Origin: Escherichia coli
Lineage (GTDB): Bacteria; Pseudomonadota; Gammaproteobacteria; Enterobacterales; Enterobacteriaceae
Reading direction: 5' to 3' (one strand)
Length of the DNA stretch: 64,000 nt
NCBI RefSeq assembly: GCF_003334335.1
Contig: NZ_QOWQ01000025.1
The notes under the pieces are model-generated. The model saw only the letters and a program-made list of their open reading frames with translations, did no database searches and was not told where the DNA came from. A program made the position numbers and the translations under genes. Numbering within the stretch: the stretch's first letter is position 1; every line of letters begins with the position of its first letter. Below are positions 22,944 to 25,238 of this stretch, in pieces.

Positions 22944-25238
22944 TTACACCTGTGCGACGTTATACCATGTGCCATTGATGTATTTTTGTATTGGTCTGAA
23001 TACTGCGGGATCATCACCATCGACTTCACCGACAATACCAAGCCCGGTAATTACGTGCCCTGCTTTCTCATACATCACCCCTTTCTGCATGGTCTGGACA
23101 ACTCGAGTCCCAAGCCGGATATCGCGTACATAACGGGAATCAAAATTACTATAGTTAGATGGTGATACCTGACCGTTAACAGCAAACGTGATGCTGTTAT
23201 CTGTATTTCTCTGACTGTAAAAATGCCAGCCTGCATCATCACCTAATTCAGTCACCACCGGACGACTTGAGTTTCCCCACAAATTGAATGCGGCTTCCTT
23301 CGTGGATGTATTACTGCTGCTGACCGTGAATTTTTTCCCGCTACCGGCACGTACTTTGGTACTTGAGGCAATATCACCAGTAACACTCAGGCCATGCCCC
23401 ATTGACACTCCGCCATTAGCGTTATTGATAGTCAGCGGCCTTAAACCGTTCCATGTCCCAAATTTATCGCCAGAGGCCGTCAGCATTAAATATGTGCTGC
23501 CGCCATCATTCCTGATAAAGAATCCATAATTGCCATAAGCAATGCGCAGACCATTAGCACTGAGTGATGTAATCTCACCTCTTGAACGGAGACCATAAGC
23601 GGAGCTGAGTGATAATTCTTCCTGAGCGTCATAGTTTCCTGTCGCCCAGCGAATTACCCCGCCCTGTACTGTTTCATGCCAGATAGTGTCTCCTTCTCCA
23701 CCACGAAACTTTCTGAGATATTTTTTGCCGCCTCTGGTGCCTGAACATAAGGCCGTAGACATATAGGCATTCTGGCTTCCGCCATCCTGATTAATCGTTC
23801 CGGTCATTGCGTCGCCCTGACGATTCCAGTCACGACGCCAGCCGGGGGAGTAGCCGTCCCCATGATTAATGTAAGTGAATTGCGCGCTGGTTGTACCGCC
23901 ACCACTTGATGTTGTCGGCGTGGTCACTCGAATAGTGATTGCAGATTTAGTTCCCATGACCTCGACGACACAACCAGCCAGGTGGATATCACCACATCCG
24001 GTATCCGTAATGATTTTGTTATTTGCATATGACCAGGAGCCTTTGCACATCCAGTACGGATGATTAAATGCACCACGGGAATCCAGCCATTCAATAAACT
24101 GAGCGGTTGTCCAGTTTCCGGCTTCAGTGCTCAAAGCGCCGCTATAAGCACGACAGGCACCGATATTTTTCGTGAAGGTATCCTTTCCCGGAATATCCGC
24201 ACCGTTCTGATCTTTCTGAAGACGTTTTTCAGCATTGTCATAGGCAGACTTCACCGCTTTTGATGTTGCAGCCAGCGTTTCAGAATCGCTGTTGGTGGCG
24301 CTACTGAGCTGGACAAGACCTTTTCGCGCTGTGGTGGCATCCTGTGCAGTGTATTTCCCGTTAGCAAGGTCATACGCTGTCTTAACCGCCTTTGGTGTTG
24401 CCGCAAGCGTTTCAGAATCGCTGTTGGTGGCGCTACTGAGCTGAACAAGGCCTTTTCGCGCGGTGGTGGCGTCCTGTGCAGTGTATTTCCCGTTAGCAAG
24501 GTCATATGCTGCCTTTACCGCTTTCGGCGTTGCGGCGAGCGTTTCAGACATGCTGTTGGTCGCACTACTGAGCTGGACAAGACCTTTTCGCGCTGTGGTA
24601 GCGTCCTGTGCGGTATATTTCCCGTTAGCAAGGTCATATGCGGCCTTAACCGCTTTCGGCGTTGCGGCCAGTGTTTCAGACGTACTGTTGGTCGCACTGC
24701 TTAACTGAGTAAAACCTTTTGCGGTCAGCGAGGCGTCCGGGTGACGTCGTGACTGTTCATGCTCTGCAATCTTGTCATCAACGTAATCCTGCGTTGCCAT
24801 CACCGTTGTGGTGTCAATAGTCAGCTCCACTGAGGCCACACTGCTGACGATGATGACCATGCGGCAGGTCTGCGAACGCCCTGAGCCTTCGGCAAGGGCA
24901 GGCTTATAACTTTCGGCCATGTTCGCCACGGCAATTAACGTTCCCGCATCATCGTACAGGCCAAGCTCACGCATCCAGAAACCGCCCACCTCCGGCGGAA
25001 TAACCAGCTCTGCGATAATATAATTACTGTTTCGTTTGTCCTGGCTGATTTTGTTCAGCGCATGTCGCCAGACTTCATGGATAAGCCCGGTCTGTCCGGC
25101 ATCCGGGACAGGCAATTTACCCCCGCCATCCCCGACGGCCATCGTGGTAATGTTGACCTTCCGCCCTCCCGGTGCGGTTGCCGCTGCCAGCTTTGCTGCA
25201 CCGGCAGTGGTGATAACGGTTCTGAATTTTGTGCTCAT
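22944..25238 (-). CDS. H: Tail fiber protein gpH (764 aa) with expanded internal repeats
   Basis: N-terminus is P2 H-like (MSTKFRTVITTAGAAKLAAA...). About 95 aa longer than P2 H because of four tandem 43-aa repeats. Confidence 0.9.
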   Translation of the reverse strand: MSTKFRTVITTAGAAKLAAATAPGGRKVNITTMAVGDGGGKLPVPDAGQTGLIHEVWRHALNKISQDKRNSNYIIAELVIPPEVGGFWMRELGLYDDAGTLIAVANMAESYKPALAEGSGRSQTCRMVIIVSSVASVELTIDTTTVMATQDYVDDKIAEHEQSRRHPDASLTAKGFTQLSSATNSTSETLAATPKAVKAAYDLANGKYTAQDATTARKGLVQLSSATNSMSETLAATPKAVKAAYDLANGKYTAQDATTARKGLVQLSSATNSDSETLAATPKAVKTAYDLANGKYTAQDATTARKGLVQLSSATNSDSETLAATSKAVKSAYDNAEKRLQKDQNGADIPGKDTFTKNIGACRAYSGALSTEAGNWTTAQFIEWLDSRGAFNHPYWMCKGSWSYANNKIITDTGCGDIHLAGCVVEVMGTKSAITIRVTTPTTSSGGGTTSAQFTYINHGDGYSPGWRRDWNRQGDAMTGTINQDGGSQNAYMSTALCSGTRGGKKYLRKFRGGEGDTIWHETVQGGVIRWATGNYDAQEELSLSSAYGLRSRGEITSLSANGLRIAYGNYGFFIRNDGGSTYLMLTASGDKFGTWNGLRPLTINNANGGVSMGHGLSVTGDIASSTKVRAGSGKKFTVSSSNTSTKEAAFNLWGNSSRPVVTELGDDAGWHFYSQRNTDNSITFAVNGQVSPSNYSNFDSRYVRDIRLGTRVVQTMQKGVMYEKAGHVITGLGIVGEVDGDDPAVFRPIQKYINGTWYNVAQV
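24220..24730. repeat. Four tandem 129-bp (43-aa) repeats inside tail fiber gene H
   Basis: Protein repeat GKYTAQDATTARKGLVQLSSATNSxSETLAATPKAVKxAYDLAN occurs 4 times (residues about 170..340), visible as near-identical DNA blocks. Confidence 0.85.

Follow-up and report, generated by a model that had tools for sequence, protein, structure and literature searches.

A tandem array of Phage_fiber_2 repeats in the tail fibre gene H of a P2-like Escherichia coli prophage is probably old and widely shared

The window analysed here is a stretch of 64,000 nucleotides from Escherichia coli. Its tail fibre gene H carries four tandem units of the repeat family PF03406. This array is very probably an old block of the proximal fibre shaft. 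It would have been inherited stably, with an occasional gain or loss of a unit, and a structural role is the most likely one for it. Relative to the wider family of P2-type H genes the array appears, from the alleles compared, to be an expansion, though an old one with a wide distribution. The repeat itself is already known. It is a catalogued Pfam family, the protein is present in public databases, and four units are the commonest number among close P2-like E. coli prophages.

Gene H and its modules

Gene H is a single ORF of 764 aa plus stop on the minus strand (22944..25238). It was assigned to PHROG 381 (tail fiber, E=2e-266). An identical protein of 764 aa is deposited at NCBI under E. 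coli, annotated as tail fiber, and occurs on 5 contigs in public data. The surroundings follow the P2-like gene order V-W-J-I-H-G. ORFs with the sizes of P2 V, W, J and I extend from 27661 down to 25249, and then come H and G. The tail fibre assembly gene G lies directly downstream of H (22413..22940, minus strand; PHROG 136, tail fiber assembly protein, E=1e-80), in the position of P2 G.

The protein is a mosaic of a P2-type collar, four Pf2 repeats, a Mu S'/S-like centre and a P2-like tip. The N-terminal collar, or baseplate-attachment domain, covers aa 1-151 (24786..25238, minus strand; PF12571, E=3e-58). The central module at aa 334-487 (23778..24239, minus strand) is similar to the variable region of S', the G(-) fibre of phage Mu (PDB 8ju3, 238 bits). 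It is followed by a Gp34/Mu S-type trimerisation domain at aa 541-604 (23427..23618, minus strand; PF21446, E=2e-23; PDB 5yvq, 4uxe and 5nxh). The centre and the trimerisation module are homologous to Mu (8ju3, E=3.5e-93; 5yvq, E=5.6e-64). Finally, the C-terminal tip, aa 630-764 (22947..23351, minus strand), is ~80% identical to residues 535-669 of P2 H. From its homologues, P2 H and the Mu S structures, H is predicted to form a trimeric fibre, attached to the baseplate, which would bind a receptor on the host surface.

Compared with P2 gpH (AAD03286.1; 669 aa), the protein of the window is 95 aa longer, as the initial annotation had stated. Both genes have the same position (I-H-G) and in both proteins the repeat begins at residue 175. 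Residues 1-173 are ~98% identical between them, and the C-terminal 135 aa ~80%. However, P2 H contains one full unit and a terminal one, against four units in the window H. After its last unit P2 continues with the junction TVMDETNK..., and its centre, of 290 aa, shows no relationship to that of the window H. The excess length had been ascribed to the four repeats. Most of it does come from additional units, but only from two of them (88 aa), as P2 already has two; the non-homologous Mu S/S'-like central module provides the other 7 residues. P2 itself is a poor yardstick for a "normal" length of H.

In phage Mu, the fibre S (gp49)/S' (PDB 5YVQ, 9KI1, 8JU3) has one Pf2 unit and then the junction shared with the window H, ...DNA..RL.KD.NGADIP.K..F. 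Mu differs in its single unit, in its N-terminus and in the switching of its distal part by G-segment inversion. When the PDB was searched by sequence with the repeat region alone, Mu S/S' were the sole matches.

Units of the repeat array

The tandem array was located at ~24189-24716 by TRF, with a period of 132, 3.4 copies, 89% matches and a score of 676. A repeat search of H gave three copies of 226 nt, spaced by 132 nt, with 87% and 81% identity. The unit therefore measures 44 aa (132 bp), and the earlier value of 43 aa (129 bp) has to be corrected. The count of four stands, with the restriction that only three units are of full length; of the fourth, about 30 residues from its start remain. 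All of them match PF03406 over model positions 1-41 of 42 (residues 170-210, 214-254, 258-298 and 302-342), with E values for units 1 to 4 of 5.1e-21, 8.4e-19, 6e-20 and 2.9e-18.

Unit 1 (aa 175-218, GFTQLSSATNSTSETLAATPKAVKAAYDLANGKYTAQDATTARK; 24585..24716, minus strand) shares 90-100% identity with the first unit of other genes that have four. Unit 2 (aa 219-262; 24453..24584, minus strand) has 87% DNA identity with units 1 and 3. Unit 3 (aa 263-306; 24321..24452, minus strand) is the one missing from three-unit variants with the same C-terminus. The partial terminal unit 4 (aa 307-336; 24231..24320, minus strand) passes after ...KAVK into the Mu Sc-like junction. This junction, SAYDNAEKRLQKDQNGADIPGK (aa 331-352; 24183..24248, minus strand), has its homologue in the Mu S fibre, where the constant part ends (PDB 5yvq/8ju3, residues 100-174). 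Downstream fibre modules diverge right after it. The variable residue at unit position 12, described initially as S/D/M, reads T/M/D/D across units 1-4. Unit 2 has the less common methionine there (NSMSE); most relatives have threonine.

The family PF03406 (Phage_fiber_2, "Phage tail fibre repeat", IPR005068) is a repeat of ~40 residues in tail fibres, and the units of H differ from it in nothing substantial. The array is particular in its period of 44 residues and in its last unit, which is truncated into the next module. PF03406 is also a modular element of other E. coli prophage fibres (PMC3368898).

Two ORFs in the other frames of the array, 24251-24505 (minus strand) and 24463-24708 (plus strand), were considered and rejected. 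They have the same 132-nt period and no independent support, and we regard them as by-products of a stop-free repeat.

Divergence between units and selection

Repeat identity at the protein level can mask divergence of the DNA, and the recency of a duplication is to be judged on the DNA. As protein, the units of H are identical at 40-42 of 44 residues. The initial annotation had also described the DNA copies as nearly identical, a description that the nucleotides contradict. Units 1-3 have pairwise identities of 87.1%, 80.3% and 87.1%, and each pair differs by 11-17 synonymous codons versus 2-4 non-synonymous ones. Most inter-unit differences are at third codon positions (12-19, versus 3-7 elsewhere), and they are mostly transitions. 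The longest identical runs in register are of 23-38 nt. Unit 4 has only 55-64% nucleotide identity with units 1-3 over 132 nt, and over its first 90 nt the dS is 0.5-1.2.

The dS values between units are 0.48-1.21, a noisy estimate given ~33 synonymous sites per unit, and the dN/dS values are 0.07-0.18. By pair, dS is ~0.5 for units 1-2, 2-3 and 3-4, and 1.0-1.2 for units 1-3 and 1-4. The low dN/dS, together with the synonymous divergence, points to old units that would be under purifying selection. For comparison, the collar of H has a dS of 0.10 from that of P2, and the median over 76 relatives is 0.07. The claim of a recent expansion is not sustained by these values, nor by the positional orthology of the units described below.

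Orthologous units compared across genes have median dS values of 0.13-0.25, higher than that of the adjacent collar (0.07). It means that some conversion between units, or some import of units from other fibres, occurred. For this reason, the dS values of the units are unusable as a simple clock.

Unit number among relatives

Each unit of the window H finds its best match in the unit of the same position in 45-49 of 49 four-unit genes, with 91-100% identity (45 of 49 in the case of unit 2). Between genes, the mean identity is 0.92-0.95 for units at the same position versus 0.74-0.87 for units at other positions. The latter values equal those found within a gene.

Among 73 unique viral-contig alleles whose collar has an identity of 98% or more, taken from the best 80 collar matches, 2, 3, 4 and 5 units were found in 14, 2, 47 and 10 alleles, respectively. 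Four copies are thus largely the norm in the close clade. In the wider P2-type H family, counted on 50%-identity representatives, the number goes from 1 to 7 and one unit is the commonest. The variation in repeat number implied by the initial annotation is borne out by this range and by the in-frame 132-bp variants.

At least 80% of gene H is present in 175 complete E. coli genomes, mostly with exactly 2295 bp. Four-unit H genes occur in hundreds of complete E. coli genomes. The uninterrupted arrangement of collar and array (1008 nt) was seen in about 8 of the 16 collar-matching rows of complete E. coli genomes, with ~41 records per row, in an evenly spaced sample of 60 rows of the matches to collar plus array. 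The H gene of the Yersinia phage vB_YpM_46 (genus Peduovirus) has 98.0% DNA identity over 2295 bp and the same four units.

The in-frame 132-bp variants keep the same N- and C-terminal modules. In P37, E. coli YZ22PE244 and PMV-1, H has 2163 bp, exactly 132 bp less, and it is without the equivalent of unit 3. P37, also a Yersinia phage of the genus Peduovirus, has the modules of the window H but three units. The five-unit alleles have one additional internal unit. In the allele L043 there is 100% identity between units 2 and 3, a genuinely recent duplication elsewhere in the family, and unit pairs at 99.2% are present in L078 and L014.

A protein search with the 174-aa collar returned mostly "partial" proteins of 190-305 aa that end inside the repeat, which are unusable for counting units.

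Origin of the array

We propose that the units were duplicated or brought together long before the present H alleles of P2-like coliphages diverged. Afterwards, they would have drifted at synonymous sites while purifying selection kept the protein sequence. Whole units of 132 bp may have been gained or lost occasionally, in register and in frame, presumably by unequal homologous recombination.

A recent tandem expansion in this phage would leave near-identical, recombination-prone DNA copies, heterogeneous in number within the population. The similarity of the units as proteins (40-42 of 44 residues) and the 95 aa that H has over P2 H agree with such an event, and recent duplications do exist in the relatives L043, L078 and L014. 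However, a DNA identity of only 80-87% between units, dS values of 0.5-1.2 and identical runs of at most 23-38 nt make it very improbable. The same four units are also found, position by position, in most close relatives and in vB_YpM_46 (98%). Another origin would be import, in which units or blocks were recombined from Pf2-bearing fibres (Mu, P1, lambdoid Stf) and the array then moved as one cassette together with the Mu Sc-like junction. The type of junction separates completely the alleles with at least three units (Mu Sc-like) from those with two (P2), and Mu S has a unit directly before the same junction. In addition, stretches of 48-55 nt in unit 1 are 91-94% identical to stfR of the Rac prophage, and orthologous units have diverged further than the collar has. 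On the other hand, adjacent units are more alike (dS ~0.5) than distant ones (1.0-1.2), as fits a stepwise local duplication, and no donor with the same multi-unit block was found outside the P2-type H genes. We consider an origin by import rather unlikely. It concerns only how the array arose and is compatible with an old and shared array.

The two remaining explanations have almost no probability. One is an artefact of assembly, in which the repeat was mis-assembled or duplicated. Many H proteins in the databases end within the repeat ("partial", 190-305 aa), and short-read assemblies often break there. But the units differ at 13-20% of their bases, which lets reads be placed unambiguously, and the frame is uninterrupted. 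An isolated phage and many complete genomes have the same architecture of 2295 bp, and the exact protein is on 5 contigs. Programmed diversification could take the form of a DGR with a TR/VR pair, or of fibre switching by an invertase as in the Mu G segment. Repeats of ~130 bp in a tail-fibre gene are superficially like TR/VR, and modules like Mu S/S' are present in H. However, the copies are in tandem and in frame, within the constant proximal part of the protein, and their mismatches, most of them third-position transitions (C/T and A/G), are not adenine-specific. A DGR target was rejected on this spectrum; no candidate reverse transcriptase was found among the ORFs examined. An invertible segment was rejected as well, because neither a gix-like site (allowing 3 mismatches) nor suitable inverted repeats were found, and no inverted copy of the fibre end turned up.

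Structure and proposed role of the array

Residues 1-360 of H were modelled with AF2 using 70 homologues. The collar had pLDDT values above 90, and the repeats only 40-80. A pseudo-trimer of residues 146-345, linked by Gly/Ser, gave a mean pLDDT of 37, from which no rise per unit is derivable. In both runs, each unit was predicted with low confidence as strand-loop-strand-helix. In a Foldseek search of the first model against the PDB, the collar had a weak match to a tail protein of a Haloferax virus, and the repeats had none.

Most likely, the array is a modular spacer of the shaft between the collar domain and the receptor-binding part. It would lie in the proximal shaft, after the collar that docks to the baseplate and before a swapped-in distal receptor-binding part related to Mu S/S'. 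Each unit may add one strand-loop-strand-helix module to a trimeric rod and, in this way, set the length and flexibility of the fibre. The conserved motif of the repeat may also offer homology for the recombination of fibre modules between unrelated phages.

In the adenovirus fibre, which is trimeric, the shaft is made of pseudo-repeats and its length varies by whole units, with constant terminal domains. Prophage fibres of EHEC show length variants of collagen or heptad type (PMC3368898). Both have repeat folds other than that of H, and the analogy is one of principle only. In the open-access literature, we found no paper on the copy number of Pf2 in P2 H.

Beyond correct annotation, the H array matters little. 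The repeat can be common to several prophage fibre genes in one genome, and it is a frequent breakpoint of short-read assemblies.

Unit number and the downstream junction

The Mu Sc-like junction is present in all 57 alleles with three or more units (3-5 in this sample), and the P2-type junction TVMDETNK in all 13 alleles with two. Three types of central module follow the Mu Sc-type junction. Nearly all alleles with either of two of these types have 4 units, and nearly all with the third type have 5. Because copy number is so tightly linked to the type of junction, shared descent alone could explain four as the norm. That the Pf2 unit number is co-adapted with the receptor-binding module downstream, beyond being inherited with it, seems unlikely to us. 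If the number were selected, the repeats would give the shaft a length that is tuned, for each module, to the depth of its receptor in the cell envelope. Likewise, the synonymous divergence between units would stabilise the chosen length against recombination. The natural series of 2 to 5 units, together with the conserved junction, gives tolerated splice points and shaft lengths for the host-range engineering of P2-type phages or tailocins.

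The H gene and its repeat array

The H open reading frame (22944-25238, minus strand) encodes a tail-fibre protein of 764 aa and contains the array. The window reproduces the P2 gene order V-W-J-I-H-G, and a tail-fibre assembly protein gene (22413-22940, PHROG match) lies directly downstream of H. The H protein also matches tail-fibre PHROGs. NCBI already has an identical 764-aa E. coli protein, named "tail fiber protein" (HAH2856509.1 and others); it was found on 5 contigs. In Pfam, the tail-collar N-terminal domain PF12571 (residues 1-151, E = 3e-58) precedes the repeats, and all four units match PF03406 (Phage_fiber_2, "Phage tail fibre repeat", E = 5e-21 to 3e-18). 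A Gp34-type trimerisation domain, PF21446, occupies residues 541-604. The array thus separates the collar from the distal modules. PF03406 had already been described in fibres of other E. coli prophages, as a modular "Pf2" element (PMC3368898).

Tandem Repeats Finder gives a period of 132 nt at 24237-24680, with 3.4 copies, 89% matches, no indels and a score of 676. A second, independent repeat finder returns three 226-nt copies spaced by exactly 132 nt, with 87% and 81% identity. The translated unit has 44 aa. More precisely, on the minus strand, unit 1 spans aa 175-218 (24716-24585), unit 2 aa 219-262 (24584-24453) and unit 3 aa 263-306 (24452-24321). Unit 4 begins at aa 307 (24320) and keeps its first ~30 residues, followed by different sequence. 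The array is therefore composed of three complete units and one partial terminal unit. The initial annotation had located four copies here, essentially correctly according to the translation and the unit coordinates. Its unit of 129 bp (43 aa) measures 132 bp (44 aa).

Two other-frame ORFs lie inside the array, at 24251-24505 (minus, 84 aa) and 24463-24708 (plus, 81 aa), and are themselves periodic. The best reading is that the repeat happens to lack stops in these frames and that neither ORF is a gene.

Comparison with P2 and Mu fibres

The 669-aa gpH of P2 has the same repeat from residue 175, but only twice, as one full and one terminal unit. According to BLASTP, the two collars are ~98% identical, the window H has four units against two, the central ~290 aa are unrelated, and the last ~135 aa are ~80% identical. 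The excess of 95 aa over P2 H had been assigned to the repeats. On this module comparison, the two added units account for 88 aa and the other central module for the remaining 7 aa.

The central module matches PDB 8ju3, a Mu S/S' chimera (E = 3.5e-93; 238 bits over residues 334-487), and H also matches Mu S itself (PDB 5yvq, E = 5.6e-64). The central module is thus related to phage Mu fibres. Mu S has a single Pf2 unit and then the same junction as the window H, "...DNA..RL.KD.NGADIP.K..F". H is a mosaic: behind the last repeat, residues ~331-764 (22947-24248, minus) begin with sequence matching the end of the constant part of Mu S; a module resembling Mu S' comes next, then the gp34/Mu S-type trimerisation domain, and the tip is P2-like. 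The GC content, which falls from ~0.56 at the 5' end to 0.42-0.47 at the 3' end, is consistent with a mosaic gene.

The junction behind the array varies with the number of units. All 13 unique two-unit alleles carry the P2-type junction KAVK-TVMDETNK. The 57 alleles with at least three units all have the Mu Sc-like junction KAVK-SAYDNAEKRLQKDQNGADIP. The latter is followed by three distinct central modules, two of them found almost always with four units and one with five. The downstream modules of the relatives part directly behind NGADIP.K. This point corresponds to the Mu Sc/Sv (gix) junction, where the constant part of Mu S stops. In Mu, the gix sequence encodes IQNLGLQE.

Divergence and age of the units

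The units were described as nearly identical at the DNA level, which is wrong. Units 1-3 have 40-42 of 44 residues in common, and their DNA identity is 87.1% (units 1 and 2), 80.3% (1 and 3) and 87.1% (2 and 3). The longest identical in-register runs are 23-38 nt. Codon differences are mainly synonymous (11-17, against 2-4 non-synonymous). Third positions hold 12/17, 19/26 and 14/17 of the differences in the unit pairs, mostly C/T and A/G transitions. By the Nei-Gojobori method, dS between units is 0.48-1.21 and dN/dS 0.07-0.18, with dS ~0.5 for neighbouring units against 1.0-1.2 for distant ones. This low DNA identity with synonymous third-position changes means that the copies are old, and that purifying selection has held their protein sequence.

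Each window unit finds its best DNA match in the unit of the same position in 45-49 of the 49 other four-unit genes (91-100% identity). Among 47 unique four-unit alleles, units at the same position share a mean identity of 0.92-0.95 between genes, and units at different positions 0.74-0.87, the same as between units of one gene. So, the units are positional orthologues, and the array is older than the split of the four-unit alleles.

For the collar, dS is 0.10 in comparison with P2 and its median over 76 relatives is 0.07, values 5-12 times smaller than between paralogous units. Between orthologous units of different H alleles (24189-24716), the median dS is 0.13-0.25, two to three times the 0.07 of the collar (24717-25238). 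These values suggest some conversion between units, or outside recombination, so that dS is no clean clock within the array.

Number of units among relatives

We counted units in three samples. The first consists of the best 80 viral-contig loci, whose collar shares at least 98% identity with that of the window. Its complete H genes (n = 76) have four units in 50 cases, two in 15, five in 10 and three in 2; among its unique DNA alleles (n = 73, window and P2 counted in) the numbers are 47, 14, 10 and 2, respectively. The second sample covers complete E. coli genomes. In the 175 that have at least 80% of the gene, it mostly measures exactly 2295 bp, and in a few 2163 bp (132 bp less).

Also within the second sample, 60 evenly spaced rows were drawn from 2457 records matching "collar plus array", one row representing ~41 records. 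The top 8 rows show an unbroken 1008-nt four-unit layout at 95.5-97.5% identity. Other rows have five units (one row), two units (about three) or one unit (three). The third sample comprises 137 proteins of at least 400 aa that represent 50%-identity clusters and have collars 52-100% identical to that of the window. All 137 have at least one unit directly behind the collar: one unit in 85, two in 36, three in 11, four in 3, and five and seven in 1 each.

In the close P2-like coliphage clade, four units are the modal number and P2 is a minority form. Family-wide, four is a high count. Four copies as the norm, the finding that the initial annotation had set against an expansion, thus largely hold in the close clade (47/73 alleles) and fail in the wider family, where one unit is commonest (85/137).

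The H genes of Yersinia phage P37, E. coli YZ22PE244 and PMV-1 share the same N- and C-terminal modules and are exactly 132 bp shorter, and their units are the counterparts of window units 1, 2 and 4. Five-unit alleles have one additional internal unit. Truly recent duplications or conversions occur in a few viral-contig loci: L043 has 100% identity between its units 2 and 3, and units 3/4 of L078 and 2/3 of L014 are 99.2% identical. Together, these cases show that whole units are gained and lost in register. Unequal homologous recombination would be the natural mechanism. In another such locus, L040, T-type and D-type units apparently stand in exchanged order.

Origin and possible role of the array

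A recent expansion in the window genome, as first proposed, is excluded by the 80-87% identity between units, their dS of 0.5-1.2 and the positional orthology across relatives. Nor is the array an assembly artefact, since the units can be told apart, the reading frame is unbroken, and an isolated phage and many complete genomes have the same architecture. The mismatch spectrum, mostly C/T and A/G changes at third positions, rules out a diversity-generating retroelement. An invertase system is also ruled out: the window has no gix-like site, and the locus presents neither an invertible-segment architecture nor an invertase signature. Possibly, the units were imported by recombination and not duplicated in place; the rejection of a recent expansion is unaffected either way.

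Both AF2 runs give a strand-loop-strand-helix per unit, at low confidence. Each unit would add such an element to a trimeric shaft, and the copy number would thereby set how long or how flexible the proximal fibre is. The conserved motif could also supply homology for module exchange between fibres. Stretches of 48-55 nt of unit 1, for example, have 91-94% identity to the Rac prophage stfR gene. The repeat is thus one that Pfam already lists, the P2-type mosaic fibre around it is also catalogued, and four units are the common number among close relatives.

Most collar-matching database proteins are annotated "partial" and end at 190-305 aa, inside the repeat. E. coli genomes have up to 15 places matching the H gene (median 1), stfR among them. 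Contigs of short-read assemblies therefore seem to break often at the Pf2 repeat.

Prophage neighbourhood

A 259-aa ORF (21482-22261, plus, opposite strand, GC ~33%) sits between G and the tail sheath gene, the P2 fun(Z) position. PHROG 7729, with no function assigned in PHROG, is its sole match (E = 3e-125), and PADLOC and NCBIfam give none. Inverted repeats of 25 nt flank it (21265-21289 and 22348-22372, 80% complementary).

A two-gene Pycsar anti-phage system (27762-29664, minus, GC 31-36%) lies just past V, in the place of the non-essential orf30 of P2. It comprises the PycC cyclase (27762-29150, minus; PADLOC PDLC00764, E = 1e-128) and the PycTM transmembrane effector (29125-29664, minus; E = 9e-28). 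Further on, an AAA-type ATPase of 555 aa (40196-41863, minus) matches three PADLOC defence candidates, NsnB (2e-51), HEC-03B (5e-43) and AriA (3e-28). Its 333-aa partner (39193-40194, minus) has no match in PADLOC, NCBIfam or PHROGs. The pair (39193-41863, minus) is probably defence cargo in a prophage hot spot.

The host flank (287-14206) is E. coli-like. Its ORF sizes and order fit mdtABCD-baeSR, names inferred from these two features only, and then TrhP/YegQ (12845-14206; NCBIfam NF011996, 875 bits). The P2-like prophage begins directly behind TrhP/YegQ, and an ORF of integrase size lies at 46939-47952.
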